From Candidatus Zhuqueibacterota bacterium (GTDB taxonomy: Bacteria > Zhuqueibacterota > Zhuqueibacteria > Thermofontimicrobiales > Thermofontimicrobiaceae): DNA of 64,000 nucleotides. Location of the stretch: contig JBMOPW010000035.1 in NCBI GenBank assembly GCA_049322915.1, forward strand, positions 96,001 to 160,000. The letters run 5' to 3'. Below the pieces are notes generated by a model. The model ran no database searches. It had not been told where the DNA came from and saw nothing but the letters and a program-made list of their open reading frames with translations. This document shows positions 1-11,519 of this stretch, piece after piece (positions within the stretch are counted from its first letter, which is position 1; every line of letters starts with the position of its first letter). The position numbers were made by a program, and so were the translations under genes.

Positions 1-810
1 GGATTCGATGCCAATGCCCGCTCCCGCGTGCGCCTGGCCTACGCCTCCATGCAGAAGGGGAATATGGAACTCCGCTTTGGTCAGCAGTGGGATTTATTCT
101 CACCGAACATTCCAATGACGGTCAATACCAATGGCATTCTCTGGTATAGCGGCAATTACGGCTTCCGACGCGCTCAGATCCAATTCCATTATAAAATGCC
201 CCTGGGCGGCATGTCTCCGCTGATTCAACTCTCGGTTGGCGAAGCGGCAAAAGAGGAAAGCACGCTGGGAGATGACAACAAGGCTGCCTTCCCCATGCTG
301 CAAGGTCGGTTGTCGAATAAATTCATGGACAAACACACTGTCGGCGCTTACTTTGTCCATGCCAAATTCGATCCGAATCCCGATCTGGATGACGATGAGT
401 ACACGACGTCTGGATTTGGCGTTGATTTTGACATGCAATTCAGCGCTATGCTGGCTGTGAAAGGTGAATTCAATAGCGGCACTAACCTGAACAATGCCAA
501 CCTGTTCACGATTGCCGGCAACGGATTAGCCGACGTTGACAGAAAAAGCATGGGGTTCTGGTTCAATGCCATTTCCAAACCTTCCACCAAAGTCAATTTT
601 GTGCTGGGATACGGAATGGATAAGAACCAGACCGACGACCTGGCCGAAGGGGCCATTGAGCAAAACAGCACCATTTATGGGGATATTATTTTCCCGATGG
701 GCAATGGATTTTGCATCTCCCTGGAAGCTCAGAGCATTTCAACAAAAATTAAAGACGGCGACACCAACAGCGCCCTGGTATTTGACATAGCTGGAATTAT
801 TAATTTCTAA
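1..810 (+). CDS. Outer-membrane beta-barrel porin (DcaP-like), 5'-truncated by the window edge
   Basis: The frame is open from the window start. It has a 'RLRLAY...GQQWDLF' porin-like motif, alternating amphipathic strands and a C-terminal Phe (…GIINF). Confidence 0.7.
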   Translation, partial: GFDANARSRVRLAYASMQKGNMELRFGQQWDLFSPNIPMTVNTNGILWYSGNYGFRRAQIQFHYKMPLGGMSPLIQLSVGEAAKEESTLGDDNKAAFPMLQGRLSNKFMDKHTVGAYFVHAKFDPNPDLDDDEYTTSGFGVDFDMQFSAMLAVKGEFNSGTNLNNANLFTIAGNGLADVDRKSMGFWFNAISKPSTKVNFVLGYGMDKNQTDDLAEGAIEQNSTIYGDIIFPMGNGFCISLEAQSISTKIKDGDTNSALVFDIAGIINF

Positions 811-874: not shown

Positions 875-970
875 ATCTCCGAGTCCTTTTACCTGCAGGG
901 AAACCCATGGTAAATCGACCGATAGGGTTTGATTGGAAACAAGCAAGCCTCCCGGACTTGGAAAGGAGAT
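875..970 (+). ncRNA. Moco-class riboswitch (molybdenum/tungsten cofactor), short variant lacking P3
   Basis: P1 is ATCTCC(875-880)/GGAGAT(965-970). The 5' end reads CTCCGAG..ACCT, followed by a GAAA-loop hairpin, AGGG…GGAAAC, and the diagnostic 3' end GCCTCCCG-GACT-TGGAAAGGAG, which matches the moaA-leader motif. The SD sequence sits inside P1. Confidence 0.85.
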
Positions 971-977
971 CCTTATT

Positions 978-1139
978 ATGTCTGCTCATTTTCATACCAG
1001 TTTCACCTCAAAGGAAATTCTCTTTTTCACCCCAGATATCACATTGCGCTATGTTCAATCTTATTTGTCTGGCATGGGAGCTTTGTCATTTTGTTGTCCA
1101 GCTTACCCTGAAACCGCAGGACTTTATTGTATTTGCTGA
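978..1139 (+). CDS. Small 53-aa ORF with Cys-rich C-terminus directly under the riboswitch SD
   Basis: ATG lies 9 nt after AGGAG of riboswitch P1. It is in frame with ORF 933..1139 (MSAHFH…FCCPAYPETAGLYCIC). No family recognised. Confidence 0.35.
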   Translation: MSAHFHTSFTSKEILFFTPDITLRYVQSYLSGMGALSFCCPAYPETAGLYCIC

Positions 1140-1276
1140 GACTTAATTATTGAGCGTTCATCGTTTTTTGTTTGTGTGCCTGACAATGCCAATTCATAGT
1201 CAATGCTTGCTTGTTGGGATACATCCTGGCAGACATGCATTGATTCCATTTTAACTTTTATTTATGGGAGTAAAAA

Positions 1277-2071
1277 ATGAAATTGTTGTCCAAACGTTCG
1301 TTGTCCTTTCTTCTTGTTGTCTTTCTTTTATGCACCTTGATCATTAGCTGCGATAAGGATAATCCGGCTGAACCGAAACCAGAAGAGGATAGTTATCTCT
1401 GGATTCACTTCAAATCGGACTCAACCAAAATCGAGTTTGAGGCATTGCCCAAAATCGATGCGGATGGTGAAGAGGCAATTCAACTCAGCTCATTTATCGA
1501 TACAACGCTCGTAGCAATTTTCCGAGATAAAAATGGTAATCCGTATGACGCCAGAAAACTTTATGCTTATCAGGTCAAAGGTGAAGATGGATTCTCCGCA
1601 TCATCAAAAGGCTATTTAAACAACACATGGGAGCAACTCTCTCTGGGACATATCATCACAGCGACCCGGCAGGTTGTTTTTCCAGACGATAAAATCGATC
1701 TGGCTGGCGCCTATAATGTCAAATCAACCCTTCACATCTTTCTCCACCGCAAGTTTGATATCATCACCCCGGACACAACGACCTTCGTTGAACTCCGCGC
1801 GCTGAATCAAACATCCATCACGAACCTTGATGGGCAGATGGAAAACGCCCTGGTTCTGAAAGATTTCGTAACAACGCTGGTGACCGCCCCTGAAAGTCGT
1901 ACGTTCAATATGAGATCGCTGGACGATTTCGGGCCCTCCTCCGACATGACCTGGGAGCAATTCCAGACTGGTTATTGGCTGATGAGCAGTGAATCGACCA
2001 TGTTCACCGATCCAGCTTTCAATTCAGGAAGATATAAAGTAAAAGTCTTAGAAAAAATTCTGGTGAATTAA
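1277..2071 (+). CDS. Lipoprotein with two tandem repeats resembling a degenerate molybdopterin-oxidoreductase domain
   Basis: Lipobox IIS-C and SD GGGAG. Internal repeat: EDGF…TWEQL..G…GAYNVK..HIFL versus LDDF…TWEQF..G…GRYKVK..KILV. Confidence 0.8.
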   Translation: MKLLSKRSLSFLLVVFLLCTLIISCDKDNPAEPKPEEDSYLWIHFKSDSTKIEFEALPKIDADGEEAIQLSSFIDTTLVAIFRDKNGNPYDARKLYAYQVKGEDGFSASSKGYLNNTWEQLSLGHIITATRQVVFPDDKIDLAGAYNVKSTLHIFLHRKFDIITPDTTTFVELRALNQTSITNLDGQMENALVLKDFVTTLVTAPESRTFNMRSLDDFGPSSDMTWEQFQTGYWLMSSESTMFTDPAFNSGRYKVKVLEKILVN

Positions 2072-2074
2072 CCT

Positions 2075-4018
2075 ATGAGTCGATTCCAATTGTATATCGT
2101 ACTTCTGACACTTGCTCTGTTGCTCCCTTCAGGCTATGCGCAAGAGGTGTATCCGGCGAAAAGCGACTCCGGTGTTCAATACTTCCGGCTTCAGGAGATT
2201 GTTATTTATGGCAACCGGGACAAGGTGAATCAGTGCACCGTCCTTGAACTTGATCAGCAACAAATGAAAACCAGGAACTCCACAACGGTTTCTGAACTGC
2301 TGAGCTTTGAGCCCGGATTGAATCTCACCTCAGGATACAAAAGCGAGACTGAAACCCGAATTCGGGGATTTCGCTCCAGCGACGTACTGGTGCTGATGGA
2401 TGGAAGACCGATCAATCCCGGTTATTATGGCCGTGTCGATCTCTCCATGTTACCATTGGATAATCTGGCGAAGGTCACTGTGATCAAAGGGCCGGCATCC
2501 GTGGCATATGGTGCAAACGCGATGGGTGGCGTAATTAACATCGTCACTCAGAATGGAATGGAAAATCCCCGGACTGTTGTTGAGGCTAAACTTGGCGATT
2601 ACCAGTATCGCAGCATAAACCTGAATCACAGTCGCCAGATCGGCCGTTTCAACTACTGGATTTCCGGGTACGAGCATCATGCCAATGGCTTGGCGATGAG
2701 CCGCGAATTCGAGCCCACGAAATATGAGGACGGCGGCAAAAGAGAATTGAGCCGGTATCATAAACTGGGCATCAGCGGTAAAGTTGGGTTTTCGCCCCAT
2801 GATAATTTATGGCTTACGCTTTCGTCGGATTACCATTGGGCAAAGAAAGACATTCCAGTCGCCACACGGTTCGTTCCCGGTGATACGCCCCGGTACTGGC
2901 GTTTCCCGAACTGGGAGCGGTACAGTCTTGCTTTGAGCGGCGAATGGAAATTGAATTCCGGATTGTCCATGAAATCGATCATTTTCACCGATGCATACAA
3001 TGATCGGTTGATCAATTATTTGACCGCTGAAATGGACGAGGATTACATCGATTACGACTCATTGCTCGAGAATTTCACCACCGGGGGCCTGGTTCAGGGT
3101 GAATATTTCCCGTCGCCCCGGCATCACCTCCTTGTGGGCGTTCAGTTTCGACGCGATCAGATGGATAAGAAACCCGATCTCAATGAACCGTGGGAAAATC
3201 ACTTTGCATCAACAGGGTCGTTCTATGCTCAGGACGATTTCAAACCCTGGGAAAAAACACTGGTGACATTGGGCGTTGGTTACTTCTATCATCGAACGGA
3301 AGTTGGGCCGGGCAGTGGGAACGTAACACCGATGGCAAGCATTCAGCAACAGCTATGGCACGACTGGAATCTGTTCGCCAGTTATTCTCAGGCCGTTCGT
3401 TTTCCGACCCTGCATCAGCTCTACAGCGTGACTTCAGGAAATTCTGAACTTCAGCCGGAATATGCCAATAAATTCGAATTAGGCGTCAAGAAAATCTTTG
3501 GTTCATCCCATCCGCATCGGTTTCTCTCCGTTGACCTGGCCTTGTTTTACAATGAACTGGAGGATATGATTTATCGATCGTCCCGTTCATTGCGCTACAA
3601 AAACATATCCCGATCGACCATGCAGGGGGTTGAATTCAGAATGAATTATTCGGTAAATCGATATGTCTCCGGTGAATTAAGCTACAGCTTTATCGACTTC
3701 CCCCAGCCAACGATGGAGATTGATGAATATCTTCCGGCCAACAAGTTCCGGGGGATGGTCACAGTCAAATCTAACGTTGGAACGAAGCTCAGTTACGAAG
3801 CAGCGTACGTCGATGAGCGGTTGTTCTATTACACCAGCACGTTCTTTACTGTGATGCCTGATTTTTATATCCATAATGTCAATGTAAGTCAAGAGATAAC
3901 TCAATGGTTAAGTGTCCGGCTGGAGGTCAGCAATCTTCTGGATAAATACTATGAAGAAGAATTTGGCTATCCTCAGCCGGGTCGACAAGTCCTGGGAGGT
4001 ATCCGCTTCATATTTTAA
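2075..4018 (+). CDS. TonB-dependent receptor
   Basis: Signal peptide, plug motifs (IRGF…VLVLMDGRP; VIKGPASVAYGANAMGGVINI) and C-terminal NLLDKYY…PGR…F. Confidence 0.95.
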   Translation: MSRFQLYIVLLTLALLLPSGYAQEVYPAKSDSGVQYFRLQEIVIYGNRDKVNQCTVLELDQQQMKTRNSTTVSELLSFEPGLNLTSGYKSETETRIRGFRSSDVLVLMDGRPINPGYYGRVDLSMLPLDNLAKVTVIKGPASVAYGANAMGGVINIVTQNGMENPRTVVEAKLGDYQYRSINLNHSRQIGRFNYWISGYEHHANGLAMSREFEPTKYEDGGKRELSRYHKLGISGKVGFSPHDNLWLTLSSDYHWAKKDIPVATRFVPGDTPRYWRFPNWERYSLALSGEWKLNSGLSMKSIIFTDAYNDRLINYLTAEMDEDYIDYDSLLENFTTGGLVQGEYFPSPRHHLLVGVQFRRDQMDKKPDLNEPWENHFASTGSFYAQDDFKPWEKTLVTLGVGYFYHRTEVGPGSGNVTPMASIQQQLWHDWNLFASYSQAVRFPTLHQLYSVTSGNSELQPEYANKFELGVKKIFGSSHPHRFLSVDLALFYNELEDMIYRSSRSLRYKNISRSTMQGVEFRMNYSVNRYVSGELSYSFIDFPQPTMEIDEYLPANKFRGMVTVKSNVGTKLSYEAAYVDERLFYYTSTFFTVMPDFYIHNVNVSQEITQWLSVRLEVSNLLDKYYEEEFGYPQPGRQVLGGIRFIF

Positions 4019-4090: not shown

Positions 4091-4123
4091 CCCTCTCCGA
4101 TGGTTCAATCCCATCGGAGAGGG
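4091..4123. terminator. Hairpin between convergent operons (probable terminator)
   Basis: Perfect 13-bp stem CCCTCTCCGATGG/CCATCGGAGAGGG with a 7-nt loop. Confidence 0.65.
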
Positions 4124-4342: not shown

Positions 4343-4957
4343 TCAGTTTCGATTGAACTTGACTGCCCGGACAAAATATTCCCCCGGGGCGTCATTAATG
4401 GTTTCGACAGTGTAATCAAGCGTTTGCAGCAGATCGCCCAATTGATTTCCCCGGATGAGTCGATGATTTTTGACCGGGCTATGCAGGGTTTCGTGAAATG
4501 TATTTAACTCCGCACTGCTGCGCAGGTGAATGATGCTCAGTTCTCCCCCGTTTTTCAACACCCGCCAACATTCCCTCAGCGCCACGGCCGTATCTGCGAA
4601 ATGCGGAAACACCTGAAACGCGATAATGATATCGAATTTCTCATGGCGAAAAGGCAGATGATGGACATCGGCGCAGAATGGCGAAATAGACTCATAGTTT
4701 TTGGAAGCGGCGACGGCTGCCATTTCTGCGGCATAGTCGATGGCGTACACTCGCGCGCCGGGCTGCGCCAGCTTTTTCAGCGCAGGGAAAATGACCCCGG
4801 TGCCGCAACCCAGATCGAGTATGCAATTCGCGCGGTGTATGGCCAGCCTCGAAAGCAGTGATTCAATGCGTTCGCCGGGATAGTTCATCCGGCGATCCCA
4901 TTCCGGCGCCAGGTTGTTGAAATGCTGGCGCGTCTTCCGGTCGTTCAGATTCATCAT
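4343..4957 (-). CDS. Class I SAM-dependent methyltransferase
   Basis: Motif I ILDLGCGTG, plus AIDYA, ADVHHLPF and RVLKNGG. The start is placed at the ATGA overlap with the upstream stop (MMNLND). Confidence 0.9.
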   Translation of the reverse strand: MMNLNDRKTRQHFNNLAPEWDRRMNYPGERIESLLSRLAIHRANCILDLGCGTGVIFPALKKLAQPGARVYAIDYAAEMAAVAASKNYESISPFCADVHHLPFRHEKFDIIIAFQVFPHFADTAVALRECWRVLKNGGELSIIHLRSSAELNTFHETLHSPVKNHRLIRGNQLGDLLQTLDYTVETINDAPGEYFVRAVKFNRN

Positions 4958-5460
4958 AGGTAAATGACATTCCTCTTTTTTAATGCGCTCAAAATGAGCG
5001 GGATGAGCACTCCCTGAAGGGCAATTCCCGGCAGTGAAACAATGGCGCCAATCGTGACGGCTACCGCCGGAAAACCCAGCAGAGGCAGAAACACGAATAG
5101 CATCAGCACATAAGCCACGCGCTCGCCGACAAGGGCTGAAATCAGGCACACCCAGAAATTCGACTTTCGCTTTTTGTAGAAATACGAGATGATCGAGGCC
5201 GCGGTCATTCCCTCAACGCTCATGATGACCGCTGTCGGGAATAGCGGCGGCATCCCGGTGATCAGCGCTGAAACCCATGGGCCAGCCAGTCCGACGAGGA
5301 TCGCGTATGGAAAGTCCAGCACGAAACCGGCCAACAGGATGGGCAGAAATATGGGCAGGAACAGTCTGCCAAGCCCCAGAATGTGAAATACAATCGGCAC
5401 CAACACGCACAGCGCCAGGAATAACGCGCTCAGAGAAATTTGACGAGTTTTTATGTGCAT
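4954..5460 (-). CDS. ECF transporter S component
   Basis: 168 aa with about 6 hydrophobic segments. Motifs 'LFLPIFLPILLAG', 'ITGMPP' and 'PGIALQ' are typical of S components. Confidence 0.85.
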   Translation of the reverse strand: MHIKTRQISLSALFLALCVLVPIVFHILGLGRLFLPIFLPILLAGFVLDFPYAILVGLAGPWVSALITGMPPLFPTAVIMSVEGMTAASIISYFYKKRKSNFWVCLISALVGERVAYVLMLFVFLPLLGFPAVAVTIGAIVSLPGIALQGVLIPLILSALKKRNVIYL

Positions 5461-5524: not shown

Positions 5525-7396
5525 TTACAACTCATAGCTGAATTGGCTCATGAAAGTTCGTCCCGGCAATGGATAGCCTTTCATAATCGTGTACTGCGCG
5601 TCGAGCAAATTTTCAATCGCCAGGGACACTTCCATCCGCTGCAGGAGCCGGTACCGTAATTTCAAATGAACCAGCGTATACTCCGGCATTTTTTCAAATG
5701 TGGTCTGAAGCGGAAAAACATTCTCCTGATAACTGGAATAAAGGTCGCTCACATATTCGCCGTACAGGGCCAGATGCGCTTTGTTCCATGCATAATCCAG
5801 GAGGAAATTCAATTTGTTCGGTGAATAAGGGATCATTTTTTTTGACTTCAGGTACGAGTATGATGTTCGGATGAAGAAATGCTCCGCCGGTTTCACATTC
5901 AGCGCGACCTCCATTCCCATGGCTTCGTTTTCTCCAATGTTTTGATTCTGCTTCACGCCAGGGCTGATGACCACGGTTTCGATAAATTGATCGCCGCTGT
6001 AATAAAATCCGCAGATGTCAACGGACGCTGCCGGGCCAAAGGATTGATTGACGCCCATTTCGTAATTCCACAAACGCTCCGGGAGCAGATCCGGATTGGC
6101 CGGCGGGAACAGGAACAGGTCTTTGATGGACGGCGTGCGGAATCCTTTGGCAGCCGTAACGCGCAGCGACGTCTGCGAATATGGCTGAAACACAAGCCCG
6201 AATTTGGGTATCCATTCGCCGCCAAAATTTGAATTATGCTCGAACCGAACCCCGGAGGAGAGCGTCAACTTTTTCCGGAACAGCTTTTGCAAATGAACGT
6301 ACAGCGCGCGCTCATCGTTGAAAAAGGCGCCAAGTTTGACTCCATTGGTCCACGCTGCGCCGCCATAGCGCTTCACGTCACTCCCGATTGTCGTTTTTAT
6401 GTCCAGGGGCATATTGAAATTCTGGAAGAACAGGAACCCATTGGTCTGATCATCTGAGTCCCAGCCATCGGACAGTTTGTGCTTGCCAAAATTCCCATGT
6501 AATTTGATGGTTCCGTGGGTTCGAGCGAACGTATTGGTCAGGGTGATGTCCATGGAACTCCGGGTGATGTCGCCATAATCGAAATAGCCGTACAAATCGA
6601 TATTCTCCGGGCCGGGATCGTGGAATTCGTACGGATTCAGACTTCCGTTGAAACTCACCTGGAACCGCTCATTGATCTGATAGCCTAATTTCACGGCAAA
6701 ATCGTAGGCCTTGAAATCGGAGTTCGGCCGATCTCCATCGGATTGCTGATACCCCAACGCCGCGAAATAGCGAAACTTATCCACTGCTCCGCTATGCTGC
6801 AATTTCATCTTTTGAGTATTGAAACTGCCATACCCCAACTGCGCTTTGGTAGTGAAGCCGACTGCCGGGAGTTGCCGGGTGATGATGTTCACAACGCCGC
6901 CCATGGCATTGGTTCCGTATACCGCAGCGGCAGGACCGCGCAGCACTTCAATGTGATCGACATTGTCAACCAGATAGGCGTCATTGATGGGGTGGCTGAA
7001 AATGCCCTGAAAGTCCGGCCGGCCGTCGATGAGCATCAACACCTGGGAGTTGGAGCTACCGCCGACACCGCGGATTGTCACGCCGCCGGCTGCCAATGAG
7101 GACACGCCATAGCCGATGGATGAACGACGCGTTGTATAAACGCCCGGGGTCAGGTAGGAGATCAGATCCGCGACATTGGTGAATTGCGTGGTCTGAATGT
7201 CCGATGGGGAAATGACGGAGACGCTGGCGGCAGCATCTTTTTGACGCATCTCAAACCGCTGACCGGTCACGATGACCGGCCCATGTACGTATTTTACCGA
7301 ATCCGGTATCGCTGTGGATTCCTGCGCCGGGAGAGGATTTATCATCAGAGAGACTAAAAGGATCGTGCCGCTTACTGCGTTTTGAATGACGTTCAC
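5525..7396 (-). CDS. TonB-dependent receptor (NikR-linked)
   Basis: GTG start with SD GGAGG. Plug motifs (IRG, LIDGRP, IEVLRGPAAAVYGTNAMGGVVNI) and C-terminal NLLD…PGR. Confidence 0.95.
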   Translation of the reverse strand: MNVIQNAVSGTILLVSLMINPLPAQESTAIPDSVKYVHGPVIVTGQRFEMRQKDAAASVSVISPSDIQTTQFTNVADLISYLTPGVYTTRRSSIGYGVSSLAAGGVTIRGVGGSSNSQVLMLIDGRPDFQGIFSHPINDAYLVDNVDHIEVLRGPAAAVYGTNAMGGVVNIITRQLPAVGFTTKAQLGYGSFNTQKMKLQHSGAVDKFRYFAALGYQQSDGDRPNSDFKAYDFAVKLGYQINERFQVSFNGSLNPYEFHDPGPENIDLYGYFDYGDITRSSMDITLTNTFARTHGTIKLHGNFGKHKLSDGWDSDDQTNGFLFFQNFNMPLDIKTTIGSDVKRYGGAAWTNGVKLGAFFNDERALYVHLQKLFRKKLTLSSGVRFEHNSNFGGEWIPKFGLVFQPYSQTSLRVTAAKGFRTPSIKDLFLFPPANPDLLPERLWNYEMGVNQSFGPAASVDICGFYYSGDQFIETVVISPGVKQNQNIGENEAMGMEVALNVKPAEHFFIRTSYSYLKSKKMIPYSPNKLNFLLDYAWNKAHLALYGEYVSDLYSSYQENVFPLQTTFEKMPEYTLVHLKLRYRLLQRMEVSLAIENLLDAQYTIMKGYPLPGRTFMSQFSYEL

Positions 7397-7491: not shown

Positions 7492-7908
7492 TCAAACATC
7501 CTTGCCGGTGGTTGTCATCACCAGCTTTCCGTGCTTGACGCCTCGAAGGCTGATCAGTTTATCGGATATTTTTCGGATCGCCGCGGTTTTGCCCCGGACT
7601 GCGATCACCTCCAGGCAGTTATGATGATCAAGATGGATATGCGTCGCTGCAATGATTTGCTCGTTGAATTGGTGCTGAACGTTGGTCAGCATTTCGGTGA
7701 GTTCGCGGACGTGATGGTCGAAGATGATGGTAATTGTGCCCACGGATTCCGCTTCATCGTCGCCCCAATGCTGCAGCACCAGTTCGTTCCGAATCAGATC
7801 GCGAATCGCTTCCGATCGGTTCTTGTAGCTGCGCGCGAAAATGAGCTGATCAAATTTTTCCAACAATGCGTTTTCGATGGAAACGCCGAAACGAGTAATT
7901 TGGCTCAT
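7492..7908 (-). CDS. nikR: Nickel-responsive regulator NikR
   Basis: N-terminal ribbon-helix-helix (RFGVSI…NRSEAIRDLIR) and Ni-site motif QH…HIHLDHHNCLE. The start was chosen by SD (GGAG) spacing. Confidence 0.97.
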   Translation of the reverse strand: MSQITRFGVSIENALLEKFDQLIFARSYKNRSEAIRDLIRNELVLQHWGDDEAESVGTITIIFDHHVRELTEMLTNVQHQFNEQIIAATHIHLDHHNCLEVIAVRGKTAAIRKISDKLISLRGVKHGKLVMTTTGKDV

Positions 7909-7920
7909 GGTCATGTCTCC

Positions 7921-7966
7921 GTAGCACAATTTTCAGAATGATAACACAATTCTGGTAAAAAGTCAA
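7921..7966 (-). promoter_or_regulatory. nikR sigma70 promoter overlapped by a NikR operator
   Basis: On the minus strand, TTGACT(7966-7961)-N17-TATCAT(7943-7938) with an extended TG. The box GTGTTAT-N13-GTGCTAC (7947-7921) overlaps the -10. Confidence 0.7.
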
Positions 7967-9372: not shown

Positions 9373-11256
9373 TTACCGCGCCAGGATCATCTTTCTCACC
9401 TGGTCTGCTTCAGCCGTTTTCAGCCGATAGAAATAAACGCCGCTGGTGACCCGCGCCCCGGCGTCGCTTCGGCCATCCCAGGAAATTTGATGAAGGCCGG
9501 CATCCATGTGGCCGTCAATCAGCGTTCGAATGAACTGGCCGCGGGCGTTGAAAATCGTCAATCGAACCTCCATTGGCCGTGGCAGTGCAAAAGAAATCTG
9601 GGTTGATGGATTGAATGGATTGGGATAATTCTGGATCAGCTCAATAGTTTCGGGCAGTGTCGAAGGATCCATATCGCTCACCGCGCTGCCCTCGGAGAGG
9701 ATGAAATTCTGTCCTGTCTGCTGCATCCCGGTGAAAATATCCAGATACAGCATGGCAGGCGTCGAATGGTAATTCGCCTGATATACACCGATTTGCCAGT
9801 ATCCCTCCGGGATATTTTCAAAGGAATAATTGCCGGCTCCGTCGGTGTAGCTGATCAAATAACCCTGAGCATTCAATTCATTATCATTCACGGCAACGAC
9901 GTAGACATCCGCTGCCGGCGCACCGCTGGCGTAGCTCACAGCGCCCGAAACGGACGTGACTCCGGCATCCACATCGAAATCGAAATCCTTGCCGGTCACC
10001 GTTTGATTCTCGCCGACAGCCACCTGCTGATAACCAAACGCCGGCGTCGTTAATGTGTAGCCATCCTTTGTCGCCTGCAACATGGTCAGCACACCCGGCT
10101 TGACTCCCAATCGATAATCACCATTGTCATCGCTGAGAGTCTGGTAAAAGTTCAACTCGAATGTGGTGAAATCCATGGCCATTCCATTTACAGTCACCCC
10201 GGCAAGACCGGCCCCATCGATCGTGCATTTGCCGGTGATGAACGACGTGTATTTTTTGAACACGAAATTCGATGTCAGCGTTTCATTTTCGCTGATCGTC
10301 AGTGTGTCAGTCTCCGGTTCAACGTAGCTATCGGTCGGCCAGGGGAAACCCTGATTGAAACCGGCATTGGCCAGATAACTCACCACGATATACACTGTCC
10401 CGGGCATCACGCCAATTCGGTACTGGCCCTGGGCATTGCTCATGGAATAGGAGAAGAAATCGGTCATTTCATCGGACCCGGCATAGATAAACACGCCGGG
10501 AACCGGCGTTCCCTCTTCGGTGGCGAGCTGACCTTCCACGAAACATGGGAACAGCGCCAGACTGATGTCCACTGTTTGGTTTTCAGCGCCGGTCACAGTC
10601 ACGTTCACCGTATCTGAAGGCTGATGATTGGGCACAATTTCGTACGCGACGACCTTCCAGTTGCCGGGAATGACAGCAATTTTGTAATCCCCGTTGGCGT
10701 CGGAAATGGCGCCGCGTGTCTCACCTGTACTTTCAGCCGTGACAATCACATTTTGAATCGGATTACCAGTGGTCTGATCCGTCACCCTTCCCATGATGAA
10801 TGGCGGCTGGTATTCCGCCAGAATCGTGAACTGCACCTGATCTGTGGAGCCGTCTTCATCCGTCATCCGGAAGATGCCGGTCATGCCGGTCGGCACCAGC
10901 ACCTCTTCCATGTCGAAAGTGACAGTCGTGGTTATTTTGCCATCGACGCCGGTCTCGTCGCCGGGCAAATCGTTCTCAGGCGCGTTCGGATCGCGAATCC
11001 AGCCAATGCCGTCAGTGATAATATTGAAGCCAAACGTGGGTTCCTGAAAGTTGATTTGTCCATCGCCATCGATATCAAGAAAATATTCAATAATCAGGCT
11101 ATTACCGGCCCGGGCCAGATCGCCGGTGAAGACGAACTCTGCCGGGAACTGAGTCACCTGAATTGATTTCTGACCGTTCAATTTGGCGTTGGTAATTCCC
11201 AAGACCACCGCCGGGACAAATAAAAGCACTACAAAAAAAATGATACATCGTCTCAT
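9373..11256 (-). CDS. Secreted protein with tandem carboxypeptidase-regulatory-like (prealbumin-fold) domains and a C-terminal FlgD-Ig/T9SS-like sorting domain
   Basis: SD AGGAGG and signal peptide MRRCIIFF…. Four 'G.V….G.P..GV.V…D..G.Y' repeats, an EF-hand-like DIDGDGQINFQE, and the tail QNYPNPFNPST…WDG…SGVYFYRL. Confidence 0.9.
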   Translation of the reverse strand: MRRCIIFFVVLLFVPAVVLGITNAKLNGQKSIQVTQFPAEFVFTGDLARAGNSLIIEYFLDIDGDGQINFQEPTFGFNIITDGIGWIRDPNAPENDLPGDETGVDGKITTTVTFDMEEVLVPTGMTGIFRMTDEDGSTDQVQFTILAEYQPPFIMGRVTDQTTGNPIQNVIVTAESTGETRGAISDANGDYKIAVIPGNWKVVAYEIVPNHQPSDTVNVTVTGAENQTVDISLALFPCFVEGQLATEEGTPVPGVFIYAGSDEMTDFFSYSMSNAQGQYRIGVMPGTVYIVVSYLANAGFNQGFPWPTDSYVEPETDTLTISENETLTSNFVFKKYTSFITGKCTIDGAGLAGVTVNGMAMDFTTFELNFYQTLSDDNGDYRLGVKPGVLTMLQATKDGYTLTTPAFGYQQVAVGENQTVTGKDFDFDVDAGVTSVSGAVSYASGAPAADVYVVAVNDNELNAQGYLISYTDGAGNYSFENIPEGYWQIGVYQANYHSTPAMLYLDIFTGMQQTGQNFILSEGSAVSDMDPSTLPETIELIQNYPNPFNPSTQISFALPRPMEVRLTIFNARGQFIRTLIDGHMDAGLHQISWDGRSDAGARVTSGVYFYRLKTAEADQVRKMILAR

Positions 11257-11519
11257 GTCGTTTACCTCCTGGATGTTATTCAAATGAGATTTTACAATGG
11301 CTGCGCGAGCCGGATGTTCGCTCAGGCTGCAACCGAAATATTTAAAATGACAAACTAAAAATACGGTAATTCTTCAAAGAAGCAAGTCATTTTTAATATG
11401 TTAACTTTTTTTCTTTTATTTGAAATGCCATGATTTTCAATTCTGAAATTAGAAATCTCCGGCCCGATTCCACGGTAACTGAGTAGTCATTTGTAGTACA
11501 CAAAGACTGCCAACCGATC

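Follow-up and report, generated by a model that had tools for sequence, protein, structure and literature searches.

What does an outer-membrane receptor import when its gene stands behind a riboswitch for the molybdenum or tungsten cofactor (Moco or Tuco)? This question is raised by a gene pair in a 64,000-nucleotide stretch of contig JBMOPW010000035.1 (positions 96,001 to 160,000, assembly GCA_049322915.1) from a Candidatus Zhuqueibacterota bacterium, referred to here as the window. The pair encodes a lipoprotein and a TonB-dependent receptor, and a preliminary description had proposed that it imports the pterin cofactor, a precursor or a chelated molybdenum or tungsten species. Our computational analysis lends support to that proposal by inference, and the predicted fold of the lipoprotein, the gene inventory of the genome and a linked energy-coupling factor (ECF) transporter with MobB point towards the pterin cofactor. 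We estimate a probability of about 0.6 that the unit scavenges this cofactor and is repressed when the cofactor is sufficient. The most likely substrate would be metal-loaded Tuco or Moco, with metal-free molybdopterin as the alternative.

The RNA was examined with cmscan against Rfam. A Moco/Tuco riboswitch aptamer (RF01055) lies at positions 865 to 984 of the plus strand and reaches 73.1 bits (E 9.9e-16), where the gathering score is 36, with the model aligned in full from 1 to 135. This is well above chance, and the covariance model bears out the earlier claim of a Moco RNA ahead of the gene pair. The aptamer is the sole copy across the 6.25 Mb genome. Model positions 59 to 75, which form stem P3, are deleted in it, and the insert at this position is missing from all 25 aligned aptamers; in the alignment of 25 related aptamers, 16 of the 27 predicted pairs showed compensatory changes on both sides. 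The 3' strand of stem P1 reads GGAGAU (965 to 970) and resembles a Shine-Dalgarno (SD) site. Absence of P3 has been proposed to define a subtype that senses the tungsten cofactor, the link being a correlation (PMC2408646). The window RNA belongs to the same Rfam family as the Moco riboswitch of the Escherichia coli moaABCDE operon, and four related loci share with that riboswitch an SD site in the 3' strand of P1 (PMC2408646). It also resembles the P3-less Tuco variants of Eubacterium limosum in the absence of P3, and the relay seen in other related loci, through a sequestor of the ribosome binding site (RBS), is similar to that at wor and tup (PMC11725836). In contrast to the known Moco and Tuco switches, its targets are an outer-membrane receptor and a lipoprotein, and the terms “TonB” and “outer membrane” are absent from the text of the 2008 survey of Moco riboswitches (Regulski et al. 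2008). Among public sequencing runs, the window stretch is present in one biofilm metagenome, which may be its source, and no run with RNA data is listed for the window DNA.

The two genes were found as described, on the plus strand and only 3 nucleotides apart. The first (1277 to 2071) encodes a 264-amino-acid lipoprotein that belongs to an unnamed family and has the lipobox residue Cys25 at the end of its signal peptide, and the second (2075 to 4018) encodes a 647-amino-acid TonB-dependent receptor. The RNA had been placed directly upstream of them; it does precede the pair, but a leader of 292 nucleotides containing a 53-codon open reading frame (ORF) intervenes between the aptamer and the lipoprotein gene. 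The receptor has a plug and a 22-strand-type barrel (Pfam Plug, 4.3e-24; TonB_dep_Rec_b-barrel, 6.3e-34), and we propose that it is an outer-membrane transporter. Its closest solved relative in a PDB sequence search was BtuB (E 4e-26). It fell under every curated NCBIfam cut-off, including those for TonB-B12 (TIGR01779, 158.2 versus 599.7 bits) and NF007926 (149.6 versus 836), and it also scored against haem and siderophore receptor subfamilies, under their cut-offs. Modelled as a complex, the receptor (residues 38-647) and the lipoprotein (residues 26-264) scored 0.00, which speaks neither for nor against an interaction.

Which known systems does this arrangement resemble? In Bacteroides, the BtuB-BtuG pair takes up vitamin B12 under a cobalamin riboswitch, and BtuG folds as a beta-propeller. 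The window unit is similar in having a cofactor riboswitch before adjacent genes for a TonB receptor and a lipoprotein, in a host apparently unable to make the cofactor. It differs in having RF01055, a lipoprotein with a predicted fold of the sulfite-oxidase/PruR type and a receptor far below the BtuB cut-offs. PqqU, which is among the weaker sequence matches of the receptor, offers a second comparison, as TonB-dependent transport of a redox cofactor that the cell need not make; the window receptor reached 55.5 bits against a PqqU cut-off of 1200. To our knowledge, PqqU works without a partner lipoprotein or a riboswitch.

Is the arrangement peculiar to this genome? A locus scan with one genome per species yielded 26 loci with lipoprotein homologues (designated by L numbers). 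RF01055 was found on the plus strand just 5' of the lipoprotein gene in 23 of them, at 54-83 bits. The loci without it were L024, which is cut inside the gene, and the Ignavibacteria loci L008 and L011. No cobalamin riboswitch or other Rfam regulator was detected across the 26 loci, and the survey of homologues therefore sided with the Moco-type regulation first described. A long ORF follows the lipoprotein gene on the same strand in 25 loci, while L025 stops at the contig edge. At 20 loci, the ORF was shown to encode the receptor: 17 aligned with it at 37-67% identity, L024 and L027 were recognised by Pfam and L004 by tblastn. In L009, L017, L020 and L026, it is the presumed receptor gene. 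Among 30 relatives and the window's own genome, 8 held the lipoprotein. The seven genomes with an uncut lipoprotein locus had exactly one Moco RNA each, adjoining the lipoprotein gene, and the only other Moco RNA in this sample (genome G027) lies 5' of a classical moaA-MOT1-moaC/B-moeA operon.

What, then, might the lipoprotein bind? It had no match in Pfam or NCBIfam, and its 120 relatives at E <= 0.001 are all unnamed or “hypothetical”; those with a taxonomic label come from Zixibacteria, Calditrichaeota or unclassified bacteria. The family is small, with just 162 clusters at 50% identity in a profile search of 1.84 billion representatives. An AlphaFold2 model built with 32 aligned members (pLDDT 88.9, pTM 0.79) suggested two parts: residues ~85-264 match the sulfite-oxidase/PruR-like pterin-binding fold, and residues ~38-160 resemble beta-grasp domains. 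The best PDB match by Foldseek was PruR (7kom; probability 1.00, E 0.011, root-mean-square deviation (rmsd) 3.7 over 138 columns), and the next matches of high probability (0.80-0.98) were PruR 7kp2, sulfite dehydrogenases and sulfite oxidases. An independent structure search, with VIA-align against 48,161 chains, returned only sulfite-oxidase-family Moco domains or PruR in its top ten (Z 6.4-10.7). These were SoxC (10.7), SorA (9.2), PruR of Vibrio cholerae (9.2), SorT (9.2), PruR of Klebsiella pneumoniae with neopterin (9.1), nitrate reductase (8.7), two entries of chicken sulfite oxidase (7.6 and 7.4), YedY (6.8) and a Thermus sulfite dehydrogenase (6.4). A ubiquitin-like fold followed at rank 11 with a Z of 5.3. 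The ESM Atlas offered no more than leads, with an Oxidored_molyb cluster at a feature score of 0.81 and structure rows that, at TM 0.36-0.38, were below the bar.

PruR (A. tumefaciens; 7kom, 7kp2 and 7rkb) is, like the lipoprotein, secreted and has a cysteine-less sulfite-oxidase-like fold, and the two superpose with a Z of 9.1-9.2 and an rmsd of 2.8-3.1 over 106-112 residues. It is a soluble protein of ~140 amino acids that partners the cyclic di-GMP enzyme DcpA and holds small pterins in a shortened cleft (PMC11194511). The window lipoprotein differs in its length of 264 amino acids, its extra beta-grasp part, its TonB receptor partner and its Moco-class riboswitch, and it has no detectable sequence similarity to PruR. 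In PruR, a Tyr and a Trp sandwich the pterin, an Asn donates a hydrogen bond, and a Trp stands where the metal-binding Cys would be (PMC11194511). In the lipoprotein family, the invariant aromatic and amide residues among 32 members include Y113, N116, W118, Y233 and W234, which may or may not lie in the cleft, and the lipobox Cys is the only invariant Cys. On the basis of the model, we propose that the lipoprotein is a cofactor-capture protein. It could possibly be exposed at the cell surface. The surface-export motif C-x-K-(D/E)2 after the lipobox Cys was defined in Bacteroidetes (PMC5080379), and this consensus may not hold in the host phylum; it was matched strictly by 13 and loosely by 27 of the 32 members, with the window sequence, CDKDN, fitting only the loose form.

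A different use of this fold has to be considered. The lipoprotein could be an envelope enzyme (a degenerate protein of the sulfite-oxidase/MsrP-like kind) or a PruR-like sensor, with the riboswitch ON in the presence of cofactor and the receptor importing something else. The fold is common to enzymes and to the signalling protein PruR (PMC11194511), yet the family has no conserved Cys for a metal. Its members also carry a Sec-type lipobox signal peptide, and two adjacent Arg before the Cys were seen in just 1 of the 32 aligned members. Periplasmic Moco enzymes travel folded through the twin-arginine translocation route. A partner of the DcpA type (a diguanylate cyclase/phosphodiesterase) was not found, and the gene downstream was a TonB-dependent receptor wherever this could be checked. 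We regard an enzyme or sensor as quite improbable, and return to it below with the layout of the leader.

Can the organism make the cofactor itself? The genome is 96.3% complete, and domain searches of it detected no MoaC, MoaA C-domain, MoaE or MoCF_biosynth (PF00994; MogA, MoaB and MoeA). Positive controls for these searches were matched in 11-13 of 14 known genomes. In tblastn searches of the genome, the MoaC-MoaB fusion and the MOT1 transporter of a relative had no match, while the matches to MoaA were all weak and of the radical-SAM kind. The genome nevertheless encodes enzymes that use the cofactor: three full-length aldehyde ferredoxin oxidoreductases (AOR) and four molybdopterin oxidoreductases. 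One of the latter is the alpha subunit of formate dehydrogenase-N (TIGR01553, 1151 bits), with an in-frame TGA for selenocysteine, located 5 kb upstream of the riboswitch; MobA-like, FdhD and FdhE-like genes cluster with it. Since the early moa genes were undetected and MobA and FdhD are present, late cofactor maturation appears to have been kept and the early steps to be missing. We infer that the genome cannot make the pterin.

The same pattern was seen among relatives. Of 20 relatives sampled from the order, none had a detected MoaC, and 19 had AOR. In a sample of the phylum (133 genomes, each at least 85% complete), MoaC was found in 50, including G159 and G162, which are flagged as unpublished, and in none of the 10 lipoprotein holders, seven of which belong to the window's own order and the others are all three of another family. 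AOR was present in 17 of the 26 holder genomes of the wider scan. One candidate for a working MoeA, C7:180435-181640 (L035 8430-9638), was rejected, having MoeA_N only in a genome with no PF00994. Its best NCBIfam match is the divisome protein Glp, under the cut-off, and it adjoins SPOR and LapB genes. Proteins with MoeA_N only were also seen in 7 of 14 sampled genomes of the family (the window's own included), none of which has MoaC.

This inventory bears on a second explanation, in which the pair imports tungstate or molybdate, free or on a secreted chelator. The lipoprotein would then bind the oxyanion or chelate, and the riboswitch would signal that the cell has enough cofactor, in the manner known from modABC and tupABC. 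Moco RNAs often do precede molybdate or tungstate transporters (PMC2408646, PMC11725836), and TonB channels near molybdopterin riboswitches in Pelobacter carbinolicus “may transport metals” (PMC3543383). ModA, TupA and WtpA were not detected in the genome, where the matches to PF13531 and PF12849 are sulfate-binding proteins and PstS-family phosphate-binding proteins; another entry route for the metal would thus be required. However, free metal would be useless where MoaA, MoaC, MoaE and MogA/MoaB were not detected and the MoeA-like protein is MoeA_N only and Glp-like. The predicted fold is that of pterin and Moco binders rather than of known oxyanion binders, and the ECF transporter described next is of a type known for vitamins and for nickel and cobalt rather than for oxyanions. 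Import of the metal is therefore, in our view, an unlikely function of the pair.

How would the cofactor cross the inner membrane? A protein of 180-204 amino acids with PF09819, the YkoE-type substrate-binding (S) subunit of ECF transporters, is encoded directly 3' of the receptor in L012, L015 (Zixibacteria) and L022. The window's own genome has a homologue that is 56-58% identical, in an operon on the minus strand (G000:C34:300620-304270; L038 2620-6270) encoding the PF09819 S subunit, an ABC ATPase, a 216-amino-acid protein, a CbiQ-type T subunit and a MobB-like protein; NCBIfam names no subunit of this operon. Because the S subunit follows the receptor in some loci and its homologue lies beside MobB here, the riboswitch, lipoprotein, receptor, ECF transporter and MobB are tied by linkage. 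Three related holder genomes have the five-gene ECF-MobB operon as well, with a putative Fe-S domain (PF04060) added to their MobB. With a single protein as query, the S subunit was found in 9 of the 26 holder genomes; it is also present in 3 of 5 relatives without the lipoprotein. YkoE is linked to thiamine-precursor genes. The linked system is like the YkoE-type (PF09819) ECF vitamin transporters in its S subunit (L012, L015 and L022) and in the ATPase and CbiQ-type T subunit of the window's own genome, and unlike them this subfamily is tied to MobB and to a riboswitch operon.

Further genes were seen beside the S subunit. In L015 (6281-9123) and L022 (9363-12061), it is followed by two unnamed secreted proteins (~340-364 and 566-613 amino acids), and this pair is also adjacent in the window's own genome (C14:338834-341630). 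In genome G056, weaker relatives of these proteins, one with a phosphodiesterase domain, follow the S subunit. The lipoprotein profile matched neither the unknown genes behind the S component of L015 and L022 nor those behind the receptor of L019.

The direction of control is clearest in loci other than the window. In L016, L018, L019 and L020, the ATG of the lipoprotein gene lies 6-7 nucleotides past the GGAG of P1, and therefore closed P1 hides the ribosome site. For E. coli moaA, reporter assays have established that this layout turns expression OFF (PMC2408646), and it argues against the enzyme or sensor reading, in which the riboswitch would be ON with cofactor. In L007, L009, L010, L013 and L014, a downstream G(A/U)CUCCUUU can pair with either the aptamer 3' segment AAAGGAGA or the AAAGGAG site of the lipoprotein gene. 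With the 3' strand locked, the computed probability that the SD site is unpaired fell from 0.72 to 0.19 in L013, from 0.46 to 0.21 in L009 and from 0.34 to 0.21 in L010; the drop was weaker in L007 (0.26 to 0.19) and least in L014 (0.34 to 0.31). This relay is like the RBS-sequestor scheme of the Eubacterium limosum Tuco riboswitches at the wor and tup operons (PMC11725836). The folding computation covered loci up to L017, and L025 and L026 were assessed by sequence elements only.

The window leader has a different design. Seven nucleotides past the GGAG of P1 lies the ATG of the leader ORF (53 codons, 978 to 1139, plus strand), which had no Pfam or NCBIfam match. No ATG was found at this place in L002, L004 or L005, and the other loci have unrelated ORFs or ORFs of 2-3 codons. 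The partial amino-acid likeness seen among the window, L002, L003 and L005 falls on a conserved RNA hairpin. The ORF is thus not conserved as a protein, and the region is probably leader RNA that is perhaps translated. A peptide metallophore precursor, which the Cys-rich tail of the ORF might call to mind, was rejected because there is no family match and no equivalent ORF in other loci.

The conserved hairpin (961 to 1028, plus strand) was delineated from alignment A2 and from RNAalifold and RNAfold predictions for the window, L002, L003, L005 and L006. In it, the aptamer 3' segment GGAAAGGAGAUCC pairs with GGAAAUUCUCUUUUUC ~50 nucleotides downstream, in competition with P1. Throughout this group, a long hairpin links the aptamer 3' strand to GGAxAUC(U)CUUUUU. 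The computed accessibility of the ribosome site was nearly the same in both states, the largest change being from 0.54 to 0.43 in L006, and the hairpin may be an anti-sequestor or a terminator. One possibility is that P1 controls translation of the leader ORF, which is coupled to downstream expression. Another possibility is that the hairpin is a terminator, giving an ON switch; a ligand-free terminator with a U-run of this kind could also suit the enzyme or sensor reading. By analogy with the nine clearer loci, OFF logic is assumed for the window leader.

Under the scavenging reading, these elements could be combined as follows. The lipoprotein would leave the cytoplasm unfolded, through the Sec/lipoprotein route, and become attached to the outer membrane, where it would hold the pterin in a cysteine-less cleft of the sulfite-oxidase/PruR type and pass it to the adjacent BtuB-like TonB-dependent receptor. 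The inner membrane would be crossed through the ECF transporter with the PF09819 S subunit, which in the window's own genome is encoded elsewhere, beside MobB. For use in formate dehydrogenase, the cofactor would then be completed by MobA, MobB and FdhD, whereas the pterin form would serve the three aldehyde oxidoreductases. When the cofactor is sufficient, the P3-less riboswitch would bind it, P1 would close and expression would drop. A broader version holds that the whole uncultured order is without molybdopterin synthesis and imports intact metal-pterin from its neighbours through the lipoprotein/TonB receptor and ECF/MobB, with a Tuco-type riboswitch governing the outer-membrane step. To this tentative extension we give slightly less than an even chance.

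Several observations weigh against cofactor scavenging. Among the 26 holder genomes, MoaC is present in 4 and a full MoaA C-domain in another, with three weak MoaA matches adjoining MoaC. Conversely, 7 of 14 genomes of the family, including one of the same genus that is 94% complete, have AOR but neither MoaC nor a detected lipoprotein. The system is therefore not needed by all apparent auxotrophs, and it is not confined to auxotrophs. The holder genomes are also interrelated and partly overlap the sample of relatives, so that the counts overstate independence. As for the lipoprotein, its fold match is structural only and is to a predicted model. Every Foldseek E-value was above 0.001, the family profile had no match to PDB sequences at E up to 10, and Pfam PF00174 (Oxidored_molyb) matched none of 35 sampled relatives and did not match the window protein at E <= 0.01. 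The ligands of PruR are small pterins, and Moco is said to be too long for its cleft (PMC11194511). At the window leader, the alternative hairpin takes the P1 3' strand and ends in a U-run; read naively, it would be a ligand-free terminator, and the RNA an ON switch. Finally, two transporters annotated as “Fe ABC-type” in Eubacterium limosum also stand behind P3-less RF01055 RNAs (PMC11725836).

The last point leads to a further explanation, in which the receptor imports iron or another nutrient for Fe-S-rich tungsten enzymes and the riboswitch couples this supply to cofactor status, as proposed for fetABC of E. limosum. The scores of the receptor against haem and siderophore subfamilies, below their cut-offs as they are, would fit such a role. 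Against it stand the pterin-binding fold predicted for the partner lipoprotein and the fact that BtuB, the closest receptor of solved structure, transports a cofactor. The linked genes are MobB, MobA, FdhD and the ECF S component, with no iron genes among them, and the “Fe” support rests on annotation in one other organism. The chance that iron or such a nutrient is the cargo seems to us very slim.

What would the scavenging reading mean, if true? The Mo/W cofactor is regarded as too labile for sharing, and its bacterial users are assumed to be its makers as well. We know of no bacterial uptake system for it. A search of the full-text literature, outside subscription journals, turned up no description of TonB-dependent or ECF uptake of Moco, Tuco or molybdopterin in bacteria. 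The nearest published mention is one sentence in the Pelobacter carbinolicus genome paper (PMC3543383). Scavenging would explain how genomes with several tungsten enzymes and without moa genes can work, and the pyranopterin cofactor would join the vitamins exchanged among microbes. It would also give a function to an unnamed lipoprotein family and a substrate to the PF09819 ECF subfamily. If the tentative extension to the whole order held as well, Moco or Tuco would be a “vitamin” traded among bacteria, and the pair would belong to the first known uptake system for it.

The gene neighbourhoods agreed in part with the associations that had been anticipated. Selenocysteine formate dehydrogenase and AOR genes do occur among the neighbours, but no link to tupABC or modABC emerged, and a divergent “tupA-like” gene in L027 was rejected as a tungstate transporter, being PstS (TIGR00975, 351 bits). 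Upstream of the window unit, the order is MobA, FdhD, FdhE-like, formate dehydrogenase (selenocysteine), FeS subunit, NrfD and thioredoxin-like, followed last by a secreted protein of 364 amino acids. L003, L004, L006 and L017 have a selenocysteine-type molybdopterin oxidoreductase and its FeS subunit on the upstream side; in L021, a molybdopterin oxidoreductase and its FeS subunit are found downstream, and L022 has AOR upstream. In the two loci from Ignavibacteria (L008 2074-8931, L011 4407-10705), the riboswitch-less pair sits between tRNA-Sec/selA and selB, beside a molybdopterin oxidoreductase operon, and this cluster looks like a joint supply of selenocysteine and cofactor for one enzyme. 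Two Krumholzibacteriota genomes have a second, divergent P3-less Moco RNA on the minus strand (L018 4449-4569, L019 5509-5629), which is followed by a 6-codon ORF and a 503-amino-acid protein with CBM96 and a C-terminal domain of the type IX secretion system (T9SS) type.

At the left edge of the window, positions 1 to 810 (plus strand) hold the 3' part of the gene for the 364-amino-acid secreted protein (whole gene L036 11717-12808, L036 being C35:84000-97000), which had no Pfam match and ends in Phe. Outer-membrane barrels often end in Phe. The gene at this position in L004 matches the phosphate-selective porin family. After the upstream gene, the terminator scan found a hairpin of 12 pairs (827 to 854) that reads as a terminator on either strand and would set the unit apart from the formate dehydrogenase cluster. 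At the other end, a strong hairpin had been said to close the unit. A GC-rich hairpin of 13 pairs is indeed present at 4091 to 4123, 73 nucleotides past the stop codon of the receptor, but its T-run is on the minus strand only, so that it would be first of all the terminator of a convergent methyltransferase gene and, for the receptor unit, a two-way terminator at best.

The convergent genes, all on the minus strand between 4343 and 7929, encode this S-adenosylmethionine-dependent methyltransferase (4343-5149), a PF12822-type ECF S component (4954-5460), a second TonB-dependent receptor (5525-7396) and NikR (7492-7929), and together they suggest an outer-membrane uptake unit under nickel regulation. 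In L006, this set also comes after the receptor, as part of it does in L004. C-terminal sorting domains of the T9SS type are abundant, at 9373-11283 of the window and at many places in the genome, where one such tail gave well over 100 matches by tblastn.

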